From an uncultured Solirubrobacterales bacterium (GTDB lineage: Bacteria > Actinomycetota > Thermoleophilia > Solirubrobacterales > 70-9): a stretch of 64,000 nucleotides of DNA. Both the position numbers and the translations under genes were made by a program. Every line of letters begins with the position of its first letter. Position 1 is the first letter of the stretch. The stretch is from NCBI GenBank assembly GCA_963702035.1, contig OY969700.1:2301915-2365914 (forward strand), given 5' to 3'. The notes below the pieces were generated by a model. That model did no database searches, was not told the origin of the DNA, and saw nothing but the letters and a program-made list of their open reading frames with translations. Of the stretch, positions 11,580-54,216 are shown one piece after another.

Positions 11580-12908
11580 TTGGTGGCGGCTGCGATCGCG
11601 CTGTTGCTGGGCCTGCACGCGGCGGGCGCGGGCTTCCAGGGCAACCCCCACGCCGTCGTGCGCGACGCGGCGCCCGGTGGGCGGCTCTGGGAAGTGACTG
11701 ACCGCCGCGCCCCGGTGATCGGCGTGACGCTGCTCGTCTGGCTGGGGGCGTTTGCCGCCGCGATTGCTGCCGAACGCCTGTCTCTCCGTTCCGGTGTGCC
11801 TTTTGCCGCCTATGTGAGCAAAAAGCACACCGGAAGGGTCGGGGCGCGGCTGCTGGCGCTCTCGCTCGTCTACCTGCCGCTGCTCTGCCTGGTCGCGGCG
11901 GCGCTGGAGCCGAGCCTCGGCGCCGAACGGCTGCTGATCATGCTCGGCTCGCCCGCGCTGGCGGCGGTGACGCTGGCGAGCCTCGGCGGCTACCGGGCGC
12001 TCGCCTTCGCCTGCGCCGCGACGTCGCTGGCCTACGCGATTGACCTGATCGGCGGCTCGGCTCTGACCCAGCTCTCGATCGTCGGCCCCAACCCCGCCGG
12101 CGGGCACCGCTTCTACGGGATCGGCAACGAGCTCGAGGCCTGCCTGGTGGTCCTGATCCTGGTCGGCACCGGTGCGGCGCTGTCGAGTTTTGCCGTGCCA
12201 GGGCACGTACAAACTCCGCAGCGGCGCGTGGCCGACCGGGGGCCCGCTGCGTTTCTCGTCGTCGCTGCGATCTTCACCTTCGTCTTCGCTTATGGGCGCT
12301 ACGGGGCGGATGTCGGGGCGGCGATCAGCCTGCCGCTGGGTGCCGCGGTGGTCGCCGCGCTGCTCGCTGAGCGCCGCGACCTGGCGCTGCTTGCCTTCCT
12401 GCTGCCGATTCCCGCCCTGGTGCTGCTCTCCGCCGCCGACCTGATCACGAGCGCCAACGCTCACCTGACCAAGACCGTGCTCGACGCGAAGAGCGGCGGC
12501 GACGTCCTCGCCGTCGTCGGGCACCGTCTCAGCGAGACGGTGAGCAGCTTCGGTCGCCCCACCCTCATCGCCGGCCTGCCGGTGGTCATCGTCGCCGCCG
12601 CGATCGCCTGGCTGCGCCGCGACCGCCTGGCGACTTGGCTGAGCGGCCTCCCACCGATGCGCGCCGGCATGCTCGGTGCCCTCGCCGCGACCCTCGTCGG
12701 CACCGCCGCCAACGACTCCGGCGCCCTGCTGCTCGAGATCGGCGGCGCCTATCTACTGGTCTTCATCGGCTTCGCCTGGGCCGAAGGGACGCGCGTGGCG
12801 CGGCGCCCATCGGCGTCCTCGCTCGCTCGCGTGCAGAGCACGCCACGCTCCCTGCGTCCTCATATGGAGAGCTCCTCGTCAAGTGCCCAGGGTCGATCGG
12901 GCCCCTGA
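11580..12908 (+). CDS. Polytopic membrane protein of unknown family. Start is uncertain and the C-terminus reads into repeat F1-c and IS110 copy 2.
   Basis: Many TM segments (FYGIGNELEACLVVLILVGTG..). The last ~35 codons are encoded by F1-c and IS sequence. Carries two in-frame hairpin insertions. Confidence 0.45.
   Translation: MVAAAIALLLGLHAAGAGFQGNPHAVVRDAAPGGRLWEVTDRRAPVIGVTLLVWLGAFAAAIAAERLSLRSGVPFAAYVSKKHTGRVGARLLALSLVYLPLLCLVAAALEPSLGAERLLIMLGSPALAAVTLASLGGYRALAFACAATSLAYAIDLIGGSALTQLSIVGPNPAGGHRFYGIGNELEACLVVLILVGTGAALSSFAVPGHVQTPQRRVADRGPAAFLVVAAIFTFVFAYGRYGADVGAAISLPLGAAVVAALLAERRDLALLAFLLPIPALVLLSAADLITSANAHLTKTVLDAKSGGDVLAVVGHRLSETVSSFGRPTLIAGLPVVIVAAAIAWLRRDRLATWLSGLPPMRAGMLGALAATLVGTAANDSGALLLEIGGAYLLVFIGFAWAEGTRVARRPSASSLARVQSTPRSLRPHMESSSSSAQGRSGP
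11789..11835. repeat. H1 hairpin (TTCCGGTGYGCCTT..AAGGCRCACCGGAA type) inside a CDS
   Basis: TTCCGGTGTGCCTTTT-15 nt-AAAAAGCACACCGGAA. Sister copy at 22585-22631. Confidence 0.7.
12185..12216. repeat. H2 hairpin (TTTG..GCACGTACAAA type) inside a CDS, imperfect
   Basis: GAGTTTTGCCGTGCC-AGG-GCACGTACAAACTC. Shares GCACGTACAAA with 47892-47919. Confidence 0.5.
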
Positions 12909-14386
12909 CGGGCCGCTGCTGTCCAGCGGCGCTCTCGGGGCGACACGGGCGGGATCCAGGTACGTTGACTGCACCGTCAGCCTCATATGCGGGGGCTGGC
13001 TACCCCATGACCGCCGATTCGTCGCGTGGCCTGCAGTCTTGAAGCGGGCGCGGCCGGCGAGCACATCCGCCGACTGCCCGAGGACGCAACGCAGGCCGCA
13101 AAGCGGCGACGTGCTGGCCTCACTTGCTCCCGTGTCGCCCCGACAGCGTCGAGGGCGTTCCTTTCGCGGTGCCTCAGCCCAGCTGACCCACCTCCCACAC
13201 GAAGGCACCCAGCTCGCGCGCCAACGCGATCCTGACCACGTTGGCGGGCTTGCCACGCTCGAGGCGAAGGCGTTGCCAACGGTTGTGCAGACGCCGCTGG
13301 GCGCGCCAGCCGATCGCACAGGCACGGGGGTCGGCGCCGCGCTGGCGCTTCTCCAGTGCGCTGCCCACCCGGGGCTGGTGGCGGTAGTGGTGGGCTGCCT
13401 CGACGAGAAGACGGCGGGCGTGCGGAGAGCCGGCCTTGGTGATCGGCCCGCGCCGGCTTCGCTCACCGGAGGAGTGCTCGGAGGGCACGATGCCGAAGTA
13501 GGCCATCAGCGAGGCCGGGCGCTCAAAGCGCCTCAGGTCTCCCGCCTCTGCGCACAGGCCAAGCGCCGTCAGCGTGTTGATCCCGCGCAGGCAGCGCAGC
13601 CGGGCGATCGTCTCGGCCCACGGCGACTCAGGCCACAGCTCCTCGATCGTCCGCTCAGAAGCACCCCGTCGCTGTTCGAGCGCCACCACCGCGGCCAGGT
13701 AGTCCTCGAGCACGGCCCGCGAGGCGCCGTCGGGGAACCTGATCGCCTCCAGCCAACGCAAGTGGGCCTGTGTCCAGGCAGAACCGGGGCCCTCCCAGCG
13801 CAGCTCGCGGCGCAAGAGGAACTTGCCGAGCCGGTGACGGGCTCTCATCAGGTCGGCTCGGATCGCCTCCCGGCAGCGGGTCAGATCTCGGAAGCGCTCC
13901 TCCTCGGGGGTCGGGATGCGCACGAAGCGCAGTTCCCCCGCGAGGCACAGCCGCGCCAGCCGCTCGGCGTCGCGGCGATCGGTCTTGACCCGGTCGCTCG
14001 GCGCTTTGGGTATCGACCCCGGGGCACAGACGCGCACGTCGAGGTGACGTTCGGCGCCCCCTCGCGCGAGCCCGAAGCCGGTCGGTCCGGCCTCATAGAC
14101 CGCGAGGAGGGGAGCCTCGAGCCCTTCCAGGAAGTCGAGTGCTCCTCGCGGTGGGCCGTTCAGTCGTCGCGAGCGGAGCTCGCCTGTCTCGGGATGAAGA
14201 ACGCAGGCGTGAGTGTGTGTGGCGTGGACGTCGAGTCCCACCACGCTTTTAGGCTGGGGCATGTCGGCACCTCCCATGATTGGGGTGTCGGCCGCGGGGA
14301 CATCCCGCGGCCCAGTCCCCGCATCGTCATGCGCGGGGTGCCGACCTACCTACCGCTGGGGCCGGTCAGCACTCCATACGGTCTTG
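12861..14386 (-). mobile_element. IS110-family insertion sequence, copy 2
   Basis: See copy 1. Same orientation, 7913 bp downstream. Confidence 0.9.
13174..14277 (-). CDS. IS110 family transposase (one Q->H difference from copy 1)
   Basis: 367-aa ORF identical to 5261-6364 except THTHAC versus TQTHAC. Confidence 0.95.
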   Translation of the reverse strand: MGGADMPQPKSVVGLDVHATHTHACVLHPETGELRSRRLNGPPRGALDFLEGLEAPLLAVYEAGPTGFGLARGGAERHLDVRVCAPGSIPKAPSDRVKTDRRDAERLARLCLAGELRFVRIPTPEEERFRDLTRCREAIRADLMRARHRLGKFLLRRELRWEGPGSAWTQAHLRWLEAIRFPDGASRAVLEDYLAAVVALEQRRGASERTIEELWPESPWAETIARLRCLRGINTLTALGLCAEAGDLRRFERPASLMAYFGIVPSEHSSGERSRRGPITKAGSPHARRLLVEAAHHYRHQPRVGSALEKRQRGADPRACAIGWRAQRRLHNRWQRLRLERGKPANVVRIALARELGAFVWEVGQLG

Positions 14387-14450
14387 ATGGGCTTGGCCAC
14401 GCACGCCCCTTCCCGGTTTCCCCCTGGCAATCAATTAGGCTTAGTGCTTC

Positions 14451-16772
14451 GTGCGAATTGCCCTAGTCTCGCCATATTCTTGGAGTTACCAGGGCGGCGT
14501 GAACCGGCACGTCGAGTCGCTCGCCGAGGAGTTTCTCGGTCGCGGTCACCACGTGCGTGTGCTCGCTCCCTTCGATCCTCCCGATCGGCTCAGCCGGGCG
14601 CTTCACCGCGCGCCCGCGGAGGCGCGGGAGATGCCCGACTATCTCGTCCCGATGGGCCGCACGGCTGGGTTCTCCGCCAACGGCGCGGTCTCCAACCTCG
14701 CCCCCTTCCCGGCGGGCGGCGTCATCGCCCCGCGTCGTGAGCTGCGCCAGGGCCGCTACGACGTGGTCCATATCCACGAGCCGATCGTGCCGCTGGTCGG
14801 CTGGAACGCCGCGCTTGGGACGCCCGCGCCCGCGGTCGGGACCTTCCACGCCTACTCGACCAAGGCGTTCCCCAACCACCTCGCTTCGGTGCTGGGGGGA
14901 AGGCGGGTCTTGAACCGGCTCTCGGCCCGGATCGCGGTCTCCGAGGCGGCCGCCTGGACCGGGCGCCGCTGGTTCGGCGGCCACTACGAGGTGATTCCGA
15001 ACGGCGTCGACGTCGACGCCGCGCCGGACGGCCAAAAGCCGCCGAACGATGAGCTGCGGGTGCTGTTCGTCGGCCGCCCCGAGGAGCGCAAGGGCCTGCC
15101 GGTCCTGCTCACCGCTTTCGAAGCGCTGGTCGAGCATGTGCCCAGCCGCCTCACCGTGATCGGGGCCGAGCGCGAGGACGTGCTGCGCTACCTGGCCGAT
15201 CCCGAGACGATGCGCTGGATCGACGTGCGCGGCCGCGTCTCCGGCGAGAGCCTCTGGACGGCGTTGCGCGACGCCGATCTGCTCTGCGCCCCCTCGCTCT
15301 CCGGCGAGAGCTTCGGCATGGTCCTCACCGAGGCCTTCGCCGCGGGCACCCCGGCGATCGCCTCCGCCATCGCCGGCTACAGCGACGTCGTCACCGATGG
15401 CGTCGACGGAGTGCTGGTCCCGCCCGGCGATCCGCAGCGCCTCGCCGAGGAACTGCAGCGCGCCCACCACGAGCCCGAGCGCCTGGCGGCGATGGGCGCG
15501 GCCGCGCGCCAGAGCGCCCAGCGATACGCCTGGCCGCGGGTCGCCGATCGCGTCACCCAGGTCTACGAGCGCGCGCTCGAGGCGCCGCAGCCGTCCGGCG
15601 CGCTCGAGCGCGCCGCGCACTGGGCCGGCATCAGGTCCGCCGACGGCGCTCCCTCGAACCCACCGCGCCGCCTGCCGACGCTCGACCCGCCGCTCGCGCA
15701 GAGCGGCAGTCGCAGGCGGCGCATCGCCCGCCGCGCCGGCCTCGGTATCGCCGGTGTTCTCGGCATCGGCCTCACCGCGCTGGCGGCGCAGAAGATCGGT
15801 GTCGACAACGTGATCGCGAGCATCGTCCGCTCCGACCTCACCTGGGTGCTTGTCGCCTGCGGGTTGATGGCCCTCTCGCTCTTCTTCCGCGCGGCCTCCT
15901 GGTACGCGATCGTGCGCGCGGCCCTGCCCAACCGGCCGGTGCGGCGTCGCGACGTCACCTCGGCGACGATGATCGGCGTGCTGATGTCGGCGACGCTGCC
16001 AGCACGGCTCGGCGAGCCGGCGAGGGCGATGACCCTCGCCCGGCGGATCGGGCGCATGCGCGAGACCTTCCCCGTGCTGCTCGGCACCCTCGTCTCGCAG
16101 ACCGTGCTGAACATCGTCGCGCTGGCCCTGCTGGGCACGATCATCGTCTCCAGTACCGACCTCTTCCACTCCAGCACCGAGAAGCTGTTCGTCTTCAGCT
16201 TCGTACCGCTCGCCCTCCTGCTCGTCGTCCTGATCGCGCCGGTGTTGATGCGCCGCAACGGCAACGGTCGCTTCGCCCGGATCGGCGCCGCGATGCACCG
16301 GGCCATGCTGCAGGTGCGGGCGGGCCTGGCGGTGTTCCGCCAGCCGCGTTACGGCGCCGTCGCCAGCATCGCCCAGCTCGGCGCCTGGGCGATCCAGCTC
16401 GCCGCCTGCTGGGCCCTGCTCGCGGCGCTCGGCCTCAGCGGACATGCCGGCATCGGCGCCGCGGCGGCGGTGCTGTTCGCGGTCAACGTGACCGCGGTCG
16501 TACCGGCGACCCCGTCGAATATCGGCGTCTTCCAGCTCGCCGTGATCAGCGTCCTGCATACCGGCTGGGGGATCAGCACCGCCGACGCCCTCGCCTACGG
16601 CGTCATCCTGCAGGCGGTCGAGATCGCCACCGCCGTCGCCCTCGGCCTGCCGGCTCTAGTACGCGAGGGCCTCACCTGGAGCGACCTCCGAGTCCAAGCA
16701 ATCTCCGCCTCTCCGGTCCGCCTCAAGCCGCATCCATCTCAGGACAGCACCCGCGAACGCATCGGAGCTTGA
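14451..16772 (+). CDS. GT4 (GT-B) glycosyltransferase fused to a UPF0104 (lysyl-PG-synthase-like, flippase-like) polytopic membrane domain
   Basis: N-terminus reads MRIALVSPYSWSYQGGVNRHVESLAEEF...PSLSGESFGMVLTEAFAAGTP. The C-terminal ~330 aa are TM-rich. Confidence 0.8.
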   Translation: MRIALVSPYSWSYQGGVNRHVESLAEEFLGRGHHVRVLAPFDPPDRLSRALHRAPAEAREMPDYLVPMGRTAGFSANGAVSNLAPFPAGGVIAPRRELRQGRYDVVHIHEPIVPLVGWNAALGTPAPAVGTFHAYSTKAFPNHLASVLGGRRVLNRLSARIAVSEAAAWTGRRWFGGHYEVIPNGVDVDAAPDGQKPPNDELRVLFVGRPEERKGLPVLLTAFEALVEHVPSRLTVIGAEREDVLRYLADPETMRWIDVRGRVSGESLWTALRDADLLCAPSLSGESFGMVLTEAFAAGTPAIASAIAGYSDVVTDGVDGVLVPPGDPQRLAEELQRAHHEPERLAAMGAAARQSAQRYAWPRVADRVTQVYERALEAPQPSGALERAAHWAGIRSADGAPSNPPRRLPTLDPPLAQSGSRRRRIARRAGLGIAGVLGIGLTALAAQKIGVDNVIASIVRSDLTWVLVACGLMALSLFFRAASWYAIVRAALPNRPVRRRDVTSATMIGVLMSATLPARLGEPARAMTLARRIGRMRETFPVLLGTLVSQTVLNIVALALLGTIIVSSTDLFHSSTEKLFVFSFVPLALLLVVLIAPVLMRRNGNGRFARIGAAMHRAMLQVRAGLAVFRQPRYGAVASIAQLGAWAIQLAACWALLAALGLSGHAGIGAAAAVLFAVNVTAVVPATPSNIGVFQLAVISVLHTGWGISTADALAYGVILQAVEIATAVALGLPALVREGLTWSDLRVQAISASPVRLKPHPSQDSTRERIGA

Positions 16773-16889
16773 GGCCTACCCCCGGTAGGGCTGGAACGTC
16801 TTGTACTTTTTCGGTGTGGGCAATGGGCGCCAGCCCACAAGCGATCCACCGAAACAAGTTAAGTGGAAGGCCTACCGGGGGTAGGCCTC
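16771..16889 (+). repeat. F2 long-hairpin element, copy A
   Basis: GAGGCCTACCCCCGGTAGGGCTGGAACGTCTTGTACTTTTTCGGTG...CACCGAAACAAGTTAAGTGGAAGGCCTACCGGGGGTAGGCCTC. Overlaps stop codons 16770-16772 (+) and 16888-16890 (-). Confidence 0.85.
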
Positions 16890-18135
16890 ACTCCTCCGAG
16901 CTGCGCGGCACCTTGCCCCCTTCGGCACCGGGTTCCTGCGCCGGCCCGCGGGGCGAGGCGATGCCGAGGACCCGCATCGCCTTGAGCCCGAGGCCGAGCT
17001 TCTCGCGGCCCTCGGTGGCGGAGACGTCGTGGCCGCAGAGCTCGCGCACGCGCTCGAGCCGGTAGCGGATCGTGTGGCGGTGGGTGAAGAGCTGTTTGGC
17101 GGTGGCGGCGACGTTGCCGTCATTGCCCAGGTAGGCCTCGACGGTCGCCACGAGCTCCGTCTCGTACTGGTCGTCATAAGCGGCGAGCGGCTCGATCGTC
17201 TCGGCGAAGAAGCGCTGCAGCTCACCCGGGTCCTCGCTCATCGCGGGCAGCAGCAGGCGGTAGGCGCCGGTGTCCTCGAAGGCGAGCAGGGGGCGGTCCT
17301 CGGCTTCGCCGACGTTGACCGCGAGGTGGGCCTCGTTGCCGGCGCGGTAGAGGTCGACGGGATCGGCGACGCGGCGGCTGGCGCCGATCGTCAGATGGAA
17401 GCCGGCGAGGGCGTCCTCGAGCTCGCGTGCGAGACCGGCGGCCGCGCGCTGCAGACGCTCTTCCTCCTCGACGGGGACGATCACGGCGATCTCTGTCGCG
17501 ACCTCGCCCTCGTCGACCGCGGCCAGGGCGCCGGGGGCAAGCGAGCGCAACGTCCGCATCGCGAGGGTCAACACACGCGCCCGCCACTCGCCGGTCTGTG
17601 CGGTTCGCGGCGCGGCACGCAGCACGATCGCCCCGGCTCCCTTCTCCAGATCCGTGCCGAGCTCGCCGGCGCGGGCGACGATGTCGCCGCGGTCGGTCAC
17701 CTTGCGGCCGAAGACCGCGGCGACGAAGACCCCCGCGACCTCCTCGTTCTGCCAGTCGGGTGAGCGGGAGCGCTCCAGCTCCAGGGCCAGCAGGGTCGTC
17801 ACCATCCGCGCGATCGCCGGATCGGGCGGAGCTTTCGCTCTGTAGCGCAGCTCACCGACCGCCGCATCGGCCACCCGCAGCTCCACAGAAGTAACCCGCT
17901 CCCCGCCGGCCAGCAGCTTCTCCTCCTGATCCGGAGACGCGCCGGCCACAGCCAGCACAGCCCCCGATCGCTCGATCAGCGCGACACTCGCATCCAGCAC
18001 CCGAGCCGCCGCCCGCGCCACCGCAGGCAGTCCAGCTCCCGACTCAACAGCTTCGGAGAGCGCCCCCAACGGCTCCTGATCAGCCGCCTTTGCAGGAGTT
18101 TTCGACCCTTTCGCGCTGGTAGACATCCTGGTCAT
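16888..18135 (-). CDS. PucR family transcriptional regulator
   Basis: C-terminal HTH: AATAKQLFTHRHTIRYRLERVRELCGHDV. Confidence 0.8.
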   Translation of the reverse strand: MTRMSTSAKGSKTPAKAADQEPLGALSEAVESGAGLPAVARAAARVLDASVALIERSGAVLAVAGASPDQEEKLLAGGERVTSVELRVADAAVGELRYRAKAPPDPAIARMVTTLLALELERSRSPDWQNEEVAGVFVAAVFGRKVTDRGDIVARAGELGTDLEKGAGAIVLRAAPRTAQTGEWRARVLTLAMRTLRSLAPGALAAVDEGEVATEIAVIVPVEEEERLQRAAAGLARELEDALAGFHLTIGASRRVADPVDLYRAGNEAHLAVNVGEAEDRPLLAFEDTGAYRLLLPAMSEDPGELQRFFAETIEPLAAYDDQYETELVATVEAYLGNDGNVAATAKQLFTHRHTIRYRLERVRELCGHDVSATEGREKLGLGLKAMRVLGIASPRGPAQEPGAEGGKVPRSSEE

Positions 18136-27139: not shown

Positions 27140-27709
27140 ATGGAGATGGGTGGAGCGGCGCTGGACCCGGAAGTCCGCGAAGGGCTGGCGCGCAGCTGGA
27201 AGGCGTTGATGGCGGTCGGCATCTTCGCGATCGTCATTGGCTGCATCGCGATCGTCGTGCCCGCGGTGGCCTCGGTCGGGACGGCGATTTTCATCGGCTG
27301 GATCCTGGTCGTCGCCGGGGCCTTCCTCGTCGCCGGCGCCTTTACCGCGCACTCGATCGGCTCGGTCATCCTTCGCCTGCTTTGGGCTTTCCTCACGGTC
27401 ATCGTCGGCCTCTGGCTGATCGTCGAACCGCACAACGGCACCCTGACCCTGACCCTTGTGCTCGGCATCTACTTCCTCTTCATGGGCCTCACCCGAATCT
27501 TCGTCGCCTTCGCCGGCCGCGGCCAGCAGGGCGCGGGCCTGGTCGGCCTCAGCGGCATAGCCGGCCTTCTGATCGGCATCCTCGTACTGGCCAAGTTCCC
27601 CAGCAGCGCCGACTGGGCAATCGGCCTCCTCGTAGGCATAGACCTGATCTTCGCCGGCTGGACCCTGACCTCAGTAGCTCTGGTCGGTCGCGACCTCTCC
27701 CGAAGCTAA
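27140..27709 (+). CDS. HdeD/DUF308 family membrane protein
   Basis: 189 aa with six TM segments: GIFAIVIGCIAIVVP...GWILVVAGAFLVAGAF. Confidence 0.8.
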   Translation: MEMGGAALDPEVREGLARSWKALMAVGIFAIVIGCIAIVVPAVASVGTAIFIGWILVVAGAFLVAGAFTAHSIGSVILRLLWAFLTVIVGLWLIVEPHNGTLTLTLVLGIYFLFMGLTRIFVAFAGRGQQGAGLVGLSGIAGLLIGILVLAKFPSSADWAIGLLVGIDLIFAGWTLTSVALVGRDLSRS

Positions 27710-27745: not shown

Positions 27746-27864
27746 GAGCGAGGATGGGGCATCCCGGAGTGCGCGGCGTCCTCTTTTCGCCCGGCGGGTC
27801 AGCGAGAGCTGGGCCGCGCTGGTGGCGAAAACCCAGCAAACGGAGGGATGCCCCATCCTCGCTC
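27746..27864 (+). repeat. F1 element, copy d (beta subtype)
   Basis: Perfect 20-bp arms GAGCGAGGATGGGGCATCCC / GGGATGCCCCATCCTCGCTC. Core reads GCGGCGTCCTCTTTTCGCCCGG...GGCGAAAACCCAGCA. Confidence 0.8.
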
Positions 27865-27885
27865 CCCCGGCATTACGATCCTGAG

Positions 27886-29277
27886 GTGAGTTCGCCTCTG
27901 GTCCTGGTCATGGCGGCCGGCGCAGGTACCCGCATGCGCTCGAGCTTGCCGAAGATGCTCCATCCCGTCTGCGGGAGGCCGCTGGTCGCCTGGCCGATCC
28001 TTGCCGCGCGCGAGGCCGGGGCCGGTCGCGTGGCGGCGATCGTCTCCCCCGGCATCGACATCTCCGCCGGTCTGCCCGACGGCGTCGAGACGGTGGTGCA
28101 GCCGCAGCCGGACGGGACCGGGGGCGCCGTGCGCGCCGCGATGCCGCTGATCGAGGAGGCGGAGACGGTTCTCGTCCTCTCGGGGGACCACCCGCTGATC
28201 TCGGCCGAGATCGTTTCCGGCTTCCTCGACGCTCATGCCGGCTCCGATGCCGCGGCGACGATGATGACGATCGAGCTCGAGGACCCGGGCAGCTACGGGC
28301 GCGTCGTGCGCGGCGCCGACGGCGAGGTCGAGCGTGTGGTCGAGGCGAAAGCCGCCGGCGATGCCGGCGCCGAGGAGCTTGCGATCCGCGAAATCAACGC
28401 CGGCACCTACGCCTTCGACGCCGGCCCGCTCGCGATCGCCCTGGCGGGGCTGTCGAACGACAACGCCCAGGGCGAGTACTACCTCACCGACGTCTTCGCT
28501 GCGCTGCGCGAGGCCGGCCATTCCGTCGCCGCCCACCGCGCCGATGACTTCGCGGTGACGATGGGGGTCAACAACCGGGTCGAGCTTGCCGGCGTCGAGG
28601 CGGAGGGCCGCCGCCGCATACTCGAGCGCCACATGCTCGCCGGGGTCACCGTCGTCGATCCCGGCACGACCTGGGTCGACGCGGACGTCGAGATCGCCGC
28701 CGACGCCCGGATCGAGCCCGGCACGAGCTTGCGCGGCGACACCGCGGTCGGCGCCGGCTCGGTCGTCGGGCCGCTCAGCACGTTGATCGACACCAGCCTG
28801 GGCGAGGGCGTCAACGTCATCCACTCCTACCTGGTCGAGTGCGACGTGCTCGACGGCTGCAGCGTCGGCCCCTTCGCCTACTTGCGCCCCGGCGCTCACC
28901 TCGAGCCGGGTGCCAAGGCCGGCACCTTCGTCGAGATCAAGAACTCGCAAATCGGGGCGGGCGCCAAGGTTCCCCATCTCGCCTACATCGGCGACGCCGA
29001 CGTCGGCGCGGGCAGCAATCTGGGCGCCGGCACGATCACCGCCAACTACGACGGTTTCCGCAAGCACCGCACGACGATCGGCACCGATGTGCGGCTCGGC
29101 GTTGACACGATGCTGATCGCCCCGGTACAAGTCGGGGACGCCGCCTACACTGGCGCCGGAGCTGTGATCAAGCACGATGTCCCCGAGGGGGCGCTTGCGG
29201 TGAGCCAGAACGACCAGAGGAACATCGAGGGCTACGCGGAGGGCAAGTCCGCGAAGGCCCGTGAGGAGGATTCGTGA
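27886..29277 (+). CDS. glmU: Bifunctional UDP-GlcNAc pyrophosphorylase / GlcN-1-P acetyltransferase
   Basis: From GTG 27886: LVLVMAAGAGTRMRSSLPKMLHPVCGRP. Hexapeptide-repeat C-terminal half. Confidence 0.9.
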   Translation: MSSPLVLVMAAGAGTRMRSSLPKMLHPVCGRPLVAWPILAAREAGAGRVAAIVSPGIDISAGLPDGVETVVQPQPDGTGGAVRAAMPLIEEAETVLVLSGDHPLISAEIVSGFLDAHAGSDAAATMMTIELEDPGSYGRVVRGADGEVERVVEAKAAGDAGAEELAIREINAGTYAFDAGPLAIALAGLSNDNAQGEYYLTDVFAALREAGHSVAAHRADDFAVTMGVNNRVELAGVEAEGRRRILERHMLAGVTVVDPGTTWVDADVEIAADARIEPGTSLRGDTAVGAGSVVGPLSTLIDTSLGEGVNVIHSYLVECDVLDGCSVGPFAYLRPGAHLEPGAKAGTFVEIKNSQIGAGAKVPHLAYIGDADVGAGSNLGAGTITANYDGFRKHRTTIGTDVRLGVDTMLIAPVQVGDAAYTGAGAVIKHDVPEGALAVSQNDQRNIEGYAEGKSAKAREEDS

Positions 29278-31717: not shown

Positions 31718-31893
31718 TTTTCGAGAGAGCCTGCCTCGCAACCCCCGCGCACGTCTGGCGGCGGCGGACACTGCGCGGTGCGGCGTCCTCAGTCGCCCAA
31801 ATAGCGCTGCTATTCGGGCTCCCTGCGTCCTTGCCCCGCTTGGTCCGGCGCGCGCCAGCCGCACACGCTGGTTGTGAGGCAGGCTCTCTAAAA
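31718..31893 (+). repeat. F1 element, copy e (unoccupied IS110 target box at 31819-31831)
   Basis: Arms TTTTCGAGAGAGCCTGCCTCGCAACC / GGTTGTGAGGCAGGCTCTCTAAAA. Core reads GCGGCGTCCTCAGTCGCCCAAATAGCGCTGCTATTCGGGCTCCCTGCGTCCT. Confidence 0.75.
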
Positions 31894-35649: not shown

Positions 35650-35764
35650 TAAGCCCATCCGGTAGGGCTTTCACTTAACTTCTTTCGGTGGATCGCCTGT
35701 GGGCTGGCGCCCGCGGCCGGCACCGAAAAAGTACAAGACGTTTCAGCCCTACCGGATGGGCTTA
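35650..35764 (-). repeat. F2 long-hairpin element, copy C
   Basis: TAAGCCCATCCGGTAGGGC...GCCCTACCGGATGGGCTTA. Lies between stop codons 35640-35642 (+) and 35762-35764 (-). Confidence 0.85.
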
Positions 35765-37121: not shown

Positions 37122-37227
37122 CCCCTGAGCTTGTCAGGCCAGGACGCAGGGAGAAGGCAAGGGGAGCGCACAGTTAGTGCGTGACCCGCAGCCGCCGACC
37201 GAGGACGCCGCATGACAAGCTCAGGGG
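37122..37227 (-). repeat. F1 element, copy f (unoccupied IS110 target box at 37141-37153)
   Basis: Perfect arms CCCCTGAGCTTGTCA / TGACAAGCTCAGGGG. The reverse complement of the core aligns with copy a (GCGGCGTCCTCGGTCG..GGGTCACGCACTAACTGTGCGCTCCCC..CTCCCTGCGTCCT). Ends 8 nt before the mfd ATG. Confidence 0.8.
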
Positions 37228-43799: not shown

Positions 43800-46247
43800 G
43801 TGGTTAGCGCCGGTTCCTACATCCTCAGCGCCGTCCTGCTGGCCGTCCTGGTCCTCTCGCTGGGGCTCTCGGCAGTTTGCCTGCGGCGAAGGTTCATGCC
43901 GGAGTGGGAGGGGGCTCCGGCGCACCTGGTCGAGGCGATTCTTGGGGTTGCGCTGCTGATCTGGCTGAGCGAGCTGCTCGGGCTCTTCAGCCTTCTCTAC
44001 GCGGGAACGTTGGTCGCCACGGCTGTGCTGCTGGCGGCAGCGGTTGCTTTTGGCCCGCGGGTCCTGTCGGGGAGAGCGGGTGCCGGGGCTTCGCTGGGTT
44101 TTTCGCCTGAATCGCCGGGGGCCGTCCGAGGTCGCGATCAGGGCGAAAAAGAGGACGCCGCTGTGCCCCGGCACCCCCTCTCCCCGCCACCCGCGGGAGG
44201 AGCGCTTACAGCGGTGGCTGTGGGGGTCGTGGCGCTCGTATTCGCTCACTGGGGGTTCACGGCTAAAGATGCTTTGGGTCGAGGTGTCTTCAATTTCGAT
44301 TCGCTCTGGTACCACCTGCCGTTTGCTGTGGAAATGGCGCATAGCCACTCGGTTACGGGGCTGCACTACACCGAGACGGTCTTCACGAACTGGTTCTACC
44401 CGCAGAACGGGGAGCTTCTGCACGCGGATGGGATCCTGCTCACGGGGCGGGACACGCTCAGCTTGTTCCTCAACTTCGGCTGGCTGGCGATTGCTTTTCT
44501 GGCTGCTTGGTGCATCGGCAGGCCGTATGGACGCGGGCCGCTCACGGTGGTTGCAGCTGCAGTGCTTCTGGAGTGCCACACGCTTGTGGTCCGCGAGCCC
44601 GGAGCTGCGAAGAACGATCTGATGGCGGCAGCTCTGCTGCTTGCGGCGATCGCGATCCTCGTCAATGCCAACTGGGGTGCGCACCTGAGGCCCCGGTGGG
44701 GGTGGCCCGGTCGGACGCGGCGTCCTGTTTTTCGCACGGACCACTCGGCGAGAGAAGCCGACTCCGAGGCGAAAAACCCAGCACCCGACCGGGCCACCCC
44801 CACCGGGGCCTCCTTGGCTGCCGCGGGACTAGCCGTCGGCATCGCCGTCGGGACGAAGTCGACGGCGCTGGCGATGGCCGTTGCGCTCACCGTTGCTGTG
44901 ATCGTGCTGGCGCCATCTGGTCGCCGTTGGGTCGCCGCCGGGTGGTGGTTCGCAGCAGGGGTCGCAGGCGGTGGCTACTGGTACCTCCGCAACCTCGTCA
45001 TCAGCGGCAACCCGCTCCCCCAGTTAGAGCATCTGGGGCCGATCTCATTGCCCCATCCCGAGAGGCTGCAAGAAGGTCGGCCGGACTTCTCGATCGTCCA
45101 CTACGCGACCGACACCGGCGTCTGGAGCAAGTACTTCGAGCCCGGGCTCCACCAGGCCTTCGGCGCCCTCTGGCCCCTGGTCATCGCCGCCGCCATAGCC
45201 GGCGGCCTGACCGCCCTCCTCTGGGGCCGCACGCGCGTCCTGCGCTGGATGGGCGGCGTAGCCCTCTTCGGAATGCTCGCCTACGTCTTCACCCCCCTCA
45301 GCGCCGCAGGAGCCGAGGGCGCCCCCGTCGGCTTCGCAATCAACATCCGCTACGCCATCCCAGCTCTTCTAGCGGGCCTGACCCTGCTGCCCCTTGCTTT
45401 TGGCTCCCGGGCATCCAGCGCCTCGGCCTCGTCTGTGGGTGGCGCGGGGGAGGGGGGGGTTCGGACGGGTGAGTCCGCTAACCCCCCCCTCCCCCGTGAC
45501 AGGATCCGCAGTCAAGAGGCAAGGTCCCTATCCGTCTGGGTGCTGCTTGGAGTGCTGCTCTTGGTCTTGCTCGCGACCGACCGTTCCGACGCCGCTCTTC
45601 GCGACCCCGATCGCCTCTTCGGCTGGCTGATCGCCGCTCTGGCGGTGCTGATCCCGGCTGCGCTGTTATTCGCTCGACATCGCGGCGCGTCGCGGGGCGC
45701 GATCGTGGCCGGATTCGCCGCGCTCGCCATCGCCGTGGTCGCGATCGGCTACCCGGTGCAGCGTGACTACCTGCGCAACCGTTTCCTCAACGCCGATGCC
45801 GAGGCGAGCATCCCCGGGATGCACCTCGACTCGGCCTACCGCTGGGCCCGGGGGGTCAGCGACGCCCGTATCGGCCTCGCCGGCACCACCGCCGGCTTCC
45901 TCGAGTACGGCTTCTACGGCACCGACCTGTCCAACCGCGTGCGCTACCTCGGCGTCGAGGGACCGCACGGCGCCTTCAACGCGATCCCGAGCTGCCCAGA
46001 ATTCCGCGCCGCCGTCAACGCCGCCGATCTCGACTACCTGGTCACCTCTCCCTTCCTCAACTTCATCGAGCCGGGCAAGCCGATCTCCTCTCCGGAGGCG
46101 CGCTGGCTGCGCGGCGAGCCGACGGCGGTCCCGATCCAGCGCAGCGGCCAGGTGACCGTCTGGCGCATCCGCGGCCAGCTCGACCCGTCGGCCTGCGGCC
46201 CCCGCAACGCTCCGCTTCGCAGGATCCCCAAACAACCCGTCAACTGA
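43800..46247 (+). CDS. Large polytopic membrane protein, possibly a GT-C-type glycosyltransferase
   Basis: 815 aa with more than 12 TM segments. Carries in-frame repeat insertions F1-g and R3. Confidence 0.65.
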   Translation: MVSAGSYILSAVLLAVLVLSLGLSAVCLRRRFMPEWEGAPAHLVEAILGVALLIWLSELLGLFSLLYAGTLVATAVLLAAAVAFGPRVLSGRAGAGASLGFSPESPGAVRGRDQGEKEDAAVPRHPLSPPPAGGALTAVAVGVVALVFAHWGFTAKDALGRGVFNFDSLWYHLPFAVEMAHSHSVTGLHYTETVFTNWFYPQNGELLHADGILLTGRDTLSLFLNFGWLAIAFLAAWCIGRPYGRGPLTVVAAAVLLECHTLVVREPGAAKNDLMAAALLLAAIAILVNANWGAHLRPRWGWPGRTRRPVFRTDHSAREADSEAKNPAPDRATPTGASLAAAGLAVGIAVGTKSTALAMAVALTVAVIVLAPSGRRWVAAGWWFAAGVAGGGYWYLRNLVISGNPLPQLEHLGPISLPHPERLQEGRPDFSIVHYATDTGVWSKYFEPGLHQAFGALWPLVIAAAIAGGLTALLWGRTRVLRWMGGVALFGMLAYVFTPLSAAGAEGAPVGFAINIRYAIPALLAGLTLLPLAFGSRASSASASSVGGAGEGGVRTGESANPPLPRDRIRSQEARSLSVWVLLGVLLLVLLATDRSDAALRDPDRLFGWLIAALAVLIPAALLFARHRGASRGAIVAGFAALAIAVVAIGYPVQRDYLRNRFLNADAEASIPGMHLDSAYRWARGVSDARIGLAGTTAGFLEYGFYGTDLSNRVRYLGVEGPHGAFNAIPSCPEFRAAVNAADLDYLVTSPFLNFIEPGKPISSPEARWLRGEPTAVPIQRSGQVTVWRIRGQLDPSACGPRNAPLRRIPKQPVN
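44687..44812 (+). repeat. F1 element, copy g (beta subtype), in frame inside a CDS
   Basis: Perfect 28-bp arms GAGGCCCCGGTGGGGGTGGCCCGGTCGG / CCGACCGGGCCACCCCCACCGGGGCCTC. Core reads GCGGCGTCCTGTTTTTCGCACGG...GGCGAAAAACCCAGCA. Total 126 bp = 42 codons. Confidence 0.85.
45435..45509 (+). repeat. R3 nested-hairpin repeat, copy 1, in frame inside a CDS (75 bp)
   Basis: GTGGGTGGCGCGGGGGAGGGGGGGGTTCGGACGGGTGAGTCCGCTAACCCCCCCCTCCCCCGTGACAGGATCCGC. Sister copy at 54112-54186 on the opposite strand. Confidence 0.8.
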
Positions 46248-46300: not shown

Positions 46301-46642
46301 GTGGGTAACCTCATTGCGATGGACTATCCGCTCGAGAACGCGCTCTTCCAGTGGGAGGAGGGGCTGCGTGCGTTGCGAGCAATCGACGACCCACGCGAGC
46401 GCCGCCAGGCCGATCGCGTCGTCGCCGCCATCCAGGACGAGCTGCGCCGCCGCATCGGTCCCACCTTTTCCGCCGCCGAGCTGGCGGATCTGTACGGGCA
46501 GGGGATCGACTGGTGCCTCCAGATCGCAACCGACACGGCCCGGGGATCGACCGCCGACGGGCAGCTTTTGGCTGACGCCACGTTCTGGCTCTACCTGCGA
46601 GGGGCGACGGACTTCGCAGGCGGAACGCAGCTCGTCACCTAG
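46301..46642 (+). CDS. Hypothetical protein
   Basis: 113-aa ORF with a normal GC3 pattern. No family recognised. Confidence 0.5.
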   Translation: MGNLIAMDYPLENALFQWEEGLRALRAIDDPRERRQADRVVAAIQDELRRRIGPTFSAAELADLYGQGIDWCLQIATDTARGSTADGQLLADATFWLYLRGATDFAGGTQLVT

Positions 46643-46755
46643 CGCCTGTCGCGGTAGGGGTGGAACGTCTTGTACTTTTTGGTCGCCGCGATTCGCGGAC
46701 GACCACTCCGGTCACACCCAAAAAGTTAAGTGGAACCCCTGCCGCGACAGGCGCT
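46641..46755 (+). repeat. F2 long-hairpin element, copy D
   Basis: AGCGCCTGTCGCGGTAGGGGTGGAACGTCTTGTACTTTTT...AAAAAGTTAAGTGGAACCCCTGCCGCGACAGGCGCT. Overlaps TAG 46640-46642 (+) and the stop at 46755-46757 (-). Confidence 0.85.
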
Positions 46756-48322: not shown

Positions 48323-48439
48323 AAAAGCCGATCCGGTAGGGCTGAAACGTCTTGTACTTTTTCGGTGCCGGCTGCGGGCGTCAGCCCACAAGCGATCCGC
48401 CGAAAGAAGTTAAGTGAAAGCCCTACCGGATCGGCTTTT
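48323..48439 (+). repeat. F2 long-hairpin element, copy E
   Basis: AAAAGCCGATCCGGTAGGGCTGAAACGTCTTGTACTTTTTCGGTG...GAAAGAAGTTAAGTGAAAGCCCTACCGGATCGGCTTTT. Confidence 0.85.
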
Positions 48440-54015: not shown

Positions 54016-54101
54016 GCCCGGGTGGCGAAACTGGCAAAAGCGGCGCACTTAAAATGCGCTGCCCCTTTGGGGGCTTGCGGGTTCGAGTCCCGCCCCGGGC
54101 A
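54016..54101 (+). tRNA. tRNA-Leu(UAA)
   Basis: GCCCGGG acceptor, anticodon arm GCGCA-CTTAAAA-TGCGC, long variable arm GCCCC-TTT-GGGGC, T arm GCGGG-TTCGAGT-CCCGC. The D stem is weak. Confidence 0.85.
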
Positions 54102-54111
54102 CTCCCGGCGC

Positions 54112-54186
54112 GCGGGTCCTGTCACGGGTGAGGGGGCTGTTAGCGGACTCACCCGTCCGAACACCCCCCTCACCCGTGCCACCCGC
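54112..54186 (-). repeat. R3 nested-hairpin repeat, copy 2, 10 nt after tRNA-Leu
   Basis: The reverse complement aligns with 45435-45509 over 75 bp, with compensatory stem changes. Confidence 0.8.
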
Positions 54187-54216
54187 GCGAGGAGCGTCCC
54201 TTAGGCTCCAGCTTTC

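Follow-up and report, generated by a model that had tools for sequence, protein, structure and literature searches.

The window, i.e., the whole 64-kb stretch of DNA that was analyzed, has a G+C content of 69.5% and contains a palindromic element, denoted F1-beta copy d, in the short interval between a gene for a DUF308 membrane protein and glmU. The features of this locus are the following.

27140..27709, plus strand: gene of a DUF308 (HdeD-like) membrane protein with a conserved C-terminus; its stop codon lies 37 nt upstream of copy d
27746..27864, plus strand: F1-beta copy d, 119 bp; arms 27746-27765 and 27845-27864, GCGGCGTCCT box 27773-27782, GGCGAAAACCCAGCA 27824-27838
27874..27879, plus strand: hexamer TACGAT, conserved at almost every orthologous locus and separated by 6 nt from the GTG of glmU
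27886..29277, plus strand: glmU (NTP_transferase domain and hexapeptide repeats), immediately downstream of copy d

The outer arms of copy d, GAGCGAGGATGGGGCATCCC and GGGATGCCCCATCCTCGCTC, are complementary at 20 of 20 positions and enclose the GCGGCGTCCT box, followed by an A/T-rich inner stem (TTTTCGCC...GGCGAAAA) and then CCCAGCA. Comparison of the predicted folding with that of shuffled sequences gives z = -6.6 for the plus strand and -5.5 for the minus strand. The element ends 21 nt before the GTG of glmU, and the TACGAT hexamer in between is probably, as judged from the sequence, the -10 box of a leaderless glmU. The sequence that follows copy d (CCCCGGCATTACG) contains no T-tract in the orientation of the element itself; the terminator consensus has a single weak match around d, on the minus strand inside the element (actinobacterial terminators may lack a T-tract), and a scan of the surroundings for consensus promoters and terminators yielded nothing useful. 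An Rfam search of the window identifies three tRNAs only; at both the gathering and lax thresholds, no Rfam family matches the elements, and the lax search adds only generic long-hairpin (miRNA precursor) models far below the threshold.

Copy d is one of eight F1 copies in the window, which also includes two elements of the related gamma type and two copies of an insertion sequence (IS).

4861..6489, plus strand: F1-alpha copy a, interrupted by an IS110-family element at 4948-6471
4948..6471, minus strand: IS110-family insertion sequence, 1524 bp; DEDD transposase ORF 5261-6364 (minus strand)
7806..7932, plus strand: F1-alpha copy b; its boxes are degenerate, and it separates a gene for Fe-S assembly (IscA-like) from a convergent glutaredoxin gene
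12781..14416, plus strand: F1-alpha copy c, holding an identical IS copy at 12861-14384
12861..14384, minus strand: second, identical IS copy; transposase 13174-14277 (minus strand)
31718..31893, plus strand: F1-alpha copy e; its apex module is of another kind, and its arms have an extra outer layer
37122..37227, minus strand: F1-alpha copy f
43800..46247, plus strand: 815-aa ORF of a GT39/PMT-like membrane glycosyltransferase, with h, g and a gamma element in frame inside it; a single gene in public data (P0001)
44055..44196, minus strand: F1-beta copy h with its outer clamp (44066-44190 without it), in frame and antisense at site 1 of the glycosyltransferase ORF
44687..44812, plus strand: F1-beta copy g, 126 bp (42 codons), in frame at site 2 of the same ORF; arms complementary at 28 of 28 positions
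45430..45512, plus strand: gamma element with the core TTCGGACGGGTGAGTCCGCTAA at 45460-45481, in frame at site 3 of the same ORF
54100..54190, minus strand: second gamma element, directly adjacent to the 3' end of tRNA-Leu (54016-54102)

Copies a through g are all present where the first-pass annotation of this DNA had placed them, and its statements that a and c are each occupied by an IS (in both cases, the identical 1524-bp IS110-family element) and that the arms are perfect or near-perfect within a copy (20/20 in d and 28/28 in g) hold as well. The details of boxes, apices and the list of copies require correction. The beta type is not limited to d and g given that a third beta copy, the eighth copy overall, had been overlooked on the minus strand (copy h). 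The GCGGCGTCCT box, considered common to all seven copies, is exact in a, d, e, f and g, but c has TCGGCGTCCT and b has GGCAGCCT; moreover, taken alone and with one mismatch allowed, this 10-mer yields 35 matches against 23 expected, i.e., barely above chance. Likewise, the GGGTCACGCAC-N-GTGCGCTCCCC module that had been assigned to the alpha copies is found in a, b and f, but c and e have other modules.

The elements of the window fall into several families with a similar layout. In the alpha family, the conserved boxes GCGTCCTCGGTCG ... CTCCCTGCGTCCT TGATCTGCTTGG surround at least three interchangeable apex hairpins, and the outer arms are local. Of the beta copies, g has the same core as d within different arms, and h consists of the beta core, gamma-type G/C arms outside it, and then the clamp CCGCGGGTGGCG...GACAGGACCCGCGG. 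The gamma elements, represented by two copies in the window, start with the clamp CCGCGGGTGGC, followed by a variable G-arm, the core TTCGGACGGGTGAGTCCGCTAA, a C-arm and the clamp GTGACAGGACCCGCGG; the gamma clamp is also found outside the arms in 18 of the listed beta copies (h-type), always in the same orientation relative to the core. A further family, with GGTAGGGCT arms and a 75-nt core, has four copies in the window. The flank of the h-type copies, CGCGGGTGGCG...GACAGGACCCGC, was considered as a mark of one orthologous locus or as an RNase P-like or SRP-like RNA; both assignments were rejected because this sequence is the gamma clamp. A tblastn search with the glycosyltransferase matches few loci, and none of the h-type loci checked (e.g., L001) is among them. 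Thus, the architecture of these elements is layered and mosaic. Mosaic combinations of motifs are also typical of the BIMEs of Escherichia coli, which the layering of F1 recalls.

A scan with the exact pattern GGCGTCCTNTTTTN{25,55}AAAACCCAGC, one genome per species, identifies the beta core at a minimum of 116 loci, all in Solirubrobacterales or in unclassified Actinomycetota MAGs, in many species and with several loci per genome. The beta element is a repeat of about 126 bp that is found across soil Solirubrobacterales. The 126 beta copies analyzed below were gathered among the matches listed by the exact pattern that requires both boxes, so that the conservation of the boxes is partly built into this sample. 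Literature searches for Solirubrobacterales and Actinobacteria found nothing relevant on repeats of this kind.

Twelve other genomes have an ortholog of copy d at this position upstream of glmU. The comparison of 43 orthologous glmU loci from metagenomes, from the stop codon of the DUF308 gene to TACGAT, shows that this site is a hot spot that usually holds a hairpin with exchangeable contents. The beta element is present in five of the 43 loci. Two loci (L130 and L143) contain only a spacer of about 20 nt, four (L134 and L139-L141) contain short GC hairpins, and L131 (GGAGGGGTCATGACCCCTCC) and L161 contain a G-run/C-run hairpin that lacks a core; in L124 and L132, only a right-arm-like sequence is found, beside the conserved TACGAT. 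Of the other loci, L182 carries an alpha element in the opposite orientation, L123, L125 and L145 carry clamp-type elements with different cores, and L144, L149 and L183 carry members of a further family. The retention of copy d at the start of glmU in 13 genomes may reflect a local role as a terminator or insulator.

In the glycosyltransferase gene, the third-codon-position G+C signal shows that the same reading frame continues on both sides of the inserts. Analysis of close orthologs, by protein alignment and at the DNA level, reveals different states of all three sites. At site 2, which holds copy g in the window, many lineages have an empty allele (GRRPGWP), whereas the 42-codon beta insert is found in many other genomes scattered over a neighbor-joining tree of the orthologs (which is not a robust phylogeny); orthologs with 78-92% identity either lack g (GRRPGWP) or, in the case of P0067, show its clean loss. 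The same site can also harbor another host palindrome (FLTRVA...TGPAAQML) that contains at least three different cores, one of which is beta. At the DNA level, the similarity of the empty g site (AGGCGGCCAGGTTGGCCC) to the arms is confined to the left one (AGGCCCCGGTGGGGGTGGCCC). At site 1, which holds copy h, the outer arms and the clamp are constant; between them, the beta core is found in the minus orientation in most genomes and in the plus orientation in several, and is replaced by a gamma core in L118, L119 and others, whereas partial remnants in P0026 and P0073 still keep half a core. Site 3 is empty in some genomes (LRRER-GQW), carries a gamma element in others (including the window, 45430-45512), and in still others carries beta between gamma-type arms, so that a series from the empty site through gamma to beta inside gamma arms is visible. 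At sites 1 and 3 alike, the same outer arms enclose either a gamma or a beta core, depending on the genome. A target-site duplication was sought around d, g and h and in the filled/empty pairs, and no flanking direct repeat was found.

The glycosyltransferase is not the only gene with such inserts. By our own crude ORF/GC3 gene calls in the collected loci, about a tenth of the beta copies (16/126) lie within ORFs, where they correspond to linkers and loops of the proteins; ten of these were verified by Pfam domains on both flanks, and those in the glycosyltransferase by protein alignment. Beta copies that are in frame between Pfam domains are present in RecG (where the insert separates the wedge from the helicase domain), an AddA-like helicase-nuclease, FbiC, DnaX (in the tau linker) and an MMPL transporter, and three of these genes contain the element in both orientations at one orthologous site. 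Among all copies within ORFs, nine are oriented with the gene and seven against it. By the same gene calls, 47 of the 126 copies follow a stop codon within 150 nt, at a median distance of 11 nt; 15 of the copies downstream of a stop codon have the same orientation as the gene and 32 the opposite one. The flanking gene pairs are convergent in 14 cases and divergent in two, against a background of 44 to 51. A bias toward the 5' side of genes was considered as well and rejected because the ORF-based analyses place most copies just after stop codons.

In the 126 copies, the arms are copy-specific in part. The paired arm has a median length of 27 bp and is free of mismatches in 34 of the 126 copies. 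The arm positions from about -19 to -10 and from +8 to +16 relative to the core are conserved (GGGGG.YCC and GG..CCC, respectively), and non-orthologous copies share about 21-24 nt of the arm on the left side and about 18-23 nt on the right side. The part common to unrelated copies is the inner ~20 bp (GGGGTGYCC... / ...GGRCACCCC), and only the outer 5-12 bp are local; many arms are, in addition, partly palindromic in themselves (GGAGGG...CCCTCC). For example, a beta copy located at site 1 of the glycosyltransferase gene in L119 has the same inner arm as g at site 2, GGGGTGGCCCGGTCGG, with different outer arms. Beta-type arms with other cores are rare, and a core-less hairpin made of such arms does not occur in the 1.2 Mb examined, for which reason the possibility that the inner arm is a free-standing target hairpin was rejected. 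Thus, the inner ~20 bp behaves as the element's own inverted repeat, which travels with the core, whereas the outer arms stay with the site. The claim that the arms differ from copy to copy is accordingly valid for the outer 5-12 bp; the premise that arms are copy-specific in their entirety fails in this larger sample, in which the inner part is conserved and resembles an ordinary terminal inverted repeat.

The pairing itself is maintained. In the alignment of the 13 orthologous copies at the d locus, 10 of the 28 predicted pairs are changed on both sides with the pairing kept, in agreement with the initial impression that both arms change together. Across the 126 copies, the arm mismatches show no strand bias, with 67 of the G:T type and 53 of the A:C type. 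An RNA transcribed from one strand would tolerate mismatches of the G:T type but not those of the A:C type, so that their equal frequencies argue against a strand-specific RNA and imply either a constraint on the DNA or arm-to-arm correction. Together with the occurrence of both orientations at one orthologous site and the near-even orientations within ORFs, the lack of mismatch bias argues for a constraint on the DNA or for such correction, and it is at the DNA level that the pairing is maintained.

The IS that resides in alpha copies a and c is a distinct entity. Its transposase matches the Pfam domains DEDD_Tnp_IS110 and Transposase_20 (E = 1e-13 and 8e-20, respectively). The IS has no terminal inverted repeats. 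In both a and c, it is inserted at the same specific sequence of the alpha element, GCGTC[CT]^TG, which adjoins the apex hairpin on the 3' side, and the junctions, each with CT, are identical; the domains, the junction core and the specific target place it in the IS110 family. The 3' non-coding region of the IS is closed by a 23-bp stem (5014-5036/5216-5238) that encloses a match to the GCGTCCT box of alpha at 5164-5181; the matching sequence in this region is CCGAGGACGCAACGCAGG. These features fit a bridge-RNA-guided IS110-family element that targets the repeat beside the hairpin, the RNA being a prediction from the sequence; the IS is a naturally occurring case of an IS110-family element directed to a box that adjoins a hairpin. 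A blastn-short comparison of the IS ends with the F1 elements detects only words at the chance level, aside from the 3' non-coding match to the box, and the derivation of F1 from the IS ends was rejected for the lack of end similarity. Given that its ends are unlike F1, the IS is a lodger rather than the parent of these elements.

Taken together, these observations make it probable that F1-beta is a non-coding, palindromic, selfish and non-autonomous mobile DNA element of about 126 bp, of the REP/REPIN/BIME and Rickettsia palindromic element (RPE) kind rather than an RNA gene, and that it belongs to a mosaic, nested set of palindromic elements (alpha, beta, gamma and others) of Solirubrobacterales. 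A copy consists of several layers: a variable apex module; the conserved boxes, namely, GCGGCGTCCT, the TTTTTCGCC/GGCGAAAAA stem and CCCAGC; the family-wide inner repeat of ~20 bp; and an outer arm of 5-12 bp that is the property of the site. Gain, loss, flipping and replacement of the core at the same site are observed among close relatives, and it is from this polymorphism of presence and orientation that we infer mobility; part of the polymorphism could stem from repeated deletion or from allele exchange between lineages by homologous recombination. In the proposed mechanism, a new core would enter an existing GC-rich hairpin at its apex, the hairpin being a terminator-like stem or a further palindromic element; entry of this kind would make the outer arm site-specific. 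The arms would subsequently be perfected and kept at the DNA level, for which there are two candidate processes: correction of one arm on the template of the other within the quasi-palindrome, or selection for the hairpin as a requirement of the mobilizing activity. In E. coli, imperfect inverted repeats are known to mutate through templated correction (PMC7202029).

The three explanations that the first-pass annotation had offered for the matching arms each turn out to be partly right. Maintained pairing is borne out upstream of glmU, where the stem is kept through double changes in the 13 genomes. Insertion into existing hairpins gains support at several loci, namely, glycosyltransferase sites 1, 2 and 3 and the d locus. 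Copying of the flank in inverted orientation agrees, for the outermost part of the arm, with the single-arm-like empty g site and with L124 and L132, which may equally be deletion remnants. The proposed inspection of empty sites for a complete hairpin has likewise given a mixed answer: at the d locus, L131 and L161 have the core-less G/C hairpin, but L130 and L143 are bare, and the empty alleles of site 3 have no hairpin. The proposed comparison of arms in a larger sample also points both ways, to the conserved inner part and to the local outer part.

The copying of the flank is the alternative that survives best. Under this scenario, which we consider rather unlikely, the outer arm is an inverted copy of one flank, produced while or after a core arrives with its inner repeat by template switching across the hairpin during replication (quasi-palindrome correction); the palindrome is thereby lengthened and made perfect, so that no pre-existing hairpin is needed. 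The alleles with a single arm are what would be expected, i.e., the empty g site that aligns with the left arm alone, and L124 and L132 that retain only the right-arm-like sequence beside TACGAT; for the g site and L124, inverted copying of the flank or deletion remnants fit at least as well as insertion into an apex. The empty alleles of site 3 (LRRER-GQW) without a hairpin, the perfect arms of 34 of the 126 copies with the unbiased mismatches of the rest, and the established status of templated correction in E. coli (PMC7202029) point in the same direction. However, one-arm alleles can also result from asymmetric deletion of a palindrome, and P0026 and P0073 are clear partial deletions with half a core; furthermore, both the d locus and glycosyltransferase sites 1 and 3 have alleles with a complete hairpin or another palindromic element but no beta.

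A bolder version of the preferred reading, insertion of mobile cores into hairpins, is that these elements are 'Russian-doll' palindromes in which the core with its inner repeat invades, by recombination or templated repair, the apex of any hairpin whose G-run/C-run arms are similar; the palindrome then perfects and extends itself and the core can flip in place, with no dedicated transposase involved. We regard this as unlikely. If true, it would, within genes, amount to a natural system of cassettes and inversions by which loops and linkers of housekeeping proteins are recoded, its targets being RecG, the tau form of DnaX, the AddA-like helicase, FbiC and membrane glycosyltransferases.

A structured non-coding RNA or a cis-regulatory RNA motif (a terminator, insulator or stability element), with a closing helix that co-varies under selection for RNA pairing, would account for the very stable folds, the compensatory changes at the orthologous d locus, the conserved boxes, the usual position about 11 nt after stop codons, and the retention of d between the end of a gene and the start of glmU in 13 genomes. 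Nevertheless, an RNA is very unlikely: Rfam has no match; arm mismatches of the G:T and A:C types are equally common; a single orthologous site can hold either orientation, and the copies in ORFs show no preference for one; in-frame copies reside in six kinds of protein genes; cores without any relationship replace each other at one site; and no T-tract follows d in its own orientation. Ordinary MITEs, i.e., deletion derivatives of an IS moved by the transposase of that IS via conserved terminal inverted repeats, with the differing arms being diverged repeats, would be compatible with the conserved inner ~20 bp in unrelated copies, the small size, the lack of an ORF and the high copy number, but are very unlikely because no target-site duplication is found at the copies compared, the arms are unlike the ends of the sole IS in the window, the outer arms differ between copies yet pair perfectly, and cores are swapped between constant arms; also, we know of no IS110-family elements with terminal repeats of the F1 kind. 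The elements, then, match no RNA known to Rfam and are probably not classical MITEs, with no target-site duplication at the copies compared and no parent IS in the window.

By what means repeats of the REP, BIME and RPE types move, and how they can be inserted into genes and leave the reading frame intact, has been an open problem for decades. Metagenomes provide hundreds of independent alleles of F1, which are empty, hairpin-only, filled, flipped or core-swapped at the same sites; as these include sites in conserved proteins, with boundaries at the level of codons, the order of hairpin, core, arm perfection and loss is directly testable. The present data further indicate that in-frame palindromic insertion is not peculiar to Rickettsia. 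They also contain a warning for annotation, in that 40-aa low-complexity inserts in Solirubrobacterales proteins are encoded by a repeat.

The known systems to which these elements and their lodger can be compared differ in what they share with them. The resident IS is similar to IS621, a bridge-RNA-guided IS110-family element with a CT core (PMC11208160), and to ISPpu10, which depends on a stem-loop 5' of the target in addition to bridge-RNA pairing (bioRxiv 10.64898/2026.03.19.712850); the shared features are the DEDD transposase, the CT core, and a fixed site in a repeated intergenic element beside a hairpin. This likeness concerns the IS in alpha copies a and c, in which the bridge RNA is a prediction, and not the F1 elements themselves. 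Intragenic invertons resemble F1 in that a segment flanked by inverted repeats of 20-28 bp occurs in either orientation at one in-frame site of orthologous genes, with the reading frame open in each; the difference is that flips of F1 are seen only between genomes rather than within a population and are linked to no invertase, and independent insertion in the opposite orientation would look the same.

With the REP/REPIN/BIME group, F1-beta shares short GC-rich repeats in inverted arrangement around a spacer, which form one long hairpin, the location mostly just downstream of genes, mosaic motifs, vertical persistence, and the status of favored targets of IS110-family elements. REP doublets are mobilized by RAYT transposases (Y1 HUH type), which are encoded by a single-copy gene with the repeats on its flanks, and REPINs are extragenic by definition. 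F1-beta differs from REPINs in that a tenth of its copies (16/126) lie inside ORFs and in that the conserved part is chiefly the core rather than the arms alone. The persistence of d upstream of glmU has a parallel in REPINs, which persist vertically at orthologous sites (PMC3116915; bioRxiv 10.1101/2021.07.10.451892).

Among the closest counterparts by analogy are the RPEs, which are likewise palindromic repeats of about 100-150 bp with a high copy number and several families per genome. In both cases, the ORF that receives the palindrome in frame is kept open, and the fraction of copies that are located inside genes without breaking them is close to 10%: 53 of the 526 RPEs of R. bellii are inserted in protein-coding genes (PMC1458961), and so are 16 of the 126 beta copies analyzed here. 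The hosts are an obligate intracellular alphaproteobacterium in the case of RPEs and a free-living, high-GC actinobacterial order in the case of F1; the difference in hosts and base composition makes sequence homology unlikely, the likeness resting on features rather than on sequence comparison. To our knowledge, nesting or swapping of cores between constant arms and flips at the same site, all of which are traits of F1, have no counterpart among RPEs. Thus, F1 appears to represent a new mosaic and nested system of palindromic repeats in an under-studied order of actinobacteria, which in its kind resembles both RPEs and REPINs/BIMEs.

Besides F1, the window contains a second repeat family, gamma, which combines an invariant core, TTCGGACGGGTGAGTCCGCTAA, with variable G-run/C-run arms and the clamp CCGCGGGTGGC...GTGACAGGACCCGCGG. 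Two copies belong to it:
45430-45512 (+), gamma copy, in frame within the glycosyltransferase gene
54100-54190 (-), gamma copy, adjoining the 3' end of tRNA-Leu

A Pfam search with the glycosyltransferase as it stands (window 43800-46247) yields no match; relatives are annotated as GT39/PMT_2. Three repeat-encoded inserts make up about 125 of the 815 residues and may hamper domain detection. At insertion site 1 of this gene in the metagenome locus L119 (1760-2000), a complete gamma element is followed directly by a separate copy of the F1-beta repeat, so that the repeats are arranged in tandem as well as nested.

An additional core type is present in locus L123 (~1050-1190) and, at sites 2 and 3 of the glycosyltransferase, in the orthologous proteins P0042, P0050, P0055 and P0072. 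If in frame, this core (DNA ...GCGGCGTCCGAGCATGTGGGGG...) encodes ...ASEHMGE...; it also contains the GCGGCGTCC box and is flanked on either side by gamma-type clamps. Upstream of glmU in L144, L149 and L183, a different core (GCTCCTGGGCAGGGGCCGCGAAGTACGCCCCGCAATCTGCTGCGCAACGGT), about 50 nt long, is enclosed by arms GGGGCTGTGTGCCCCTCC, which also flank a beta copy in L033, an unrelated locus. The glmU start itself is preceded by a short motif:
27874-27888, TACGAT, followed after 6 nt by the GTG of glmU
TACGAT is conserved at this position in about 40 orthologous loci and leaves no space for a ribosome-binding site before the GTG, which suggests that the glmU mRNA is leaderless.

The IS110-family element is present in two identical copies of 1524 bp:
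4948-6471, IS110-family element
12861-14384, IS110-family element
Both copies have a CT core at each of the two junctions. The 3' non-coding region, closed by a 23-bp stem (5014-5036 / 5216-5238), includes a match (5164-5181) to GCGTCCT, the target box of the alpha repeats, and is probably a bridge/seek RNA.

A further repeat family is represented by four copies:
16770-16890, repeat copy
35650-35764, repeat copy
46641-46755, repeat copy
48323-48439, repeat copy
The inner arms, GGTAGGGCT/AGCCCTACC, are conserved and the outer arms are local; within the core of about 75 nt, a TTTTTCGG...CCGAAA stem again encloses a variable apex. The arm contains a GTAG that is reminiscent of REP sequences recognised by RAYTs.
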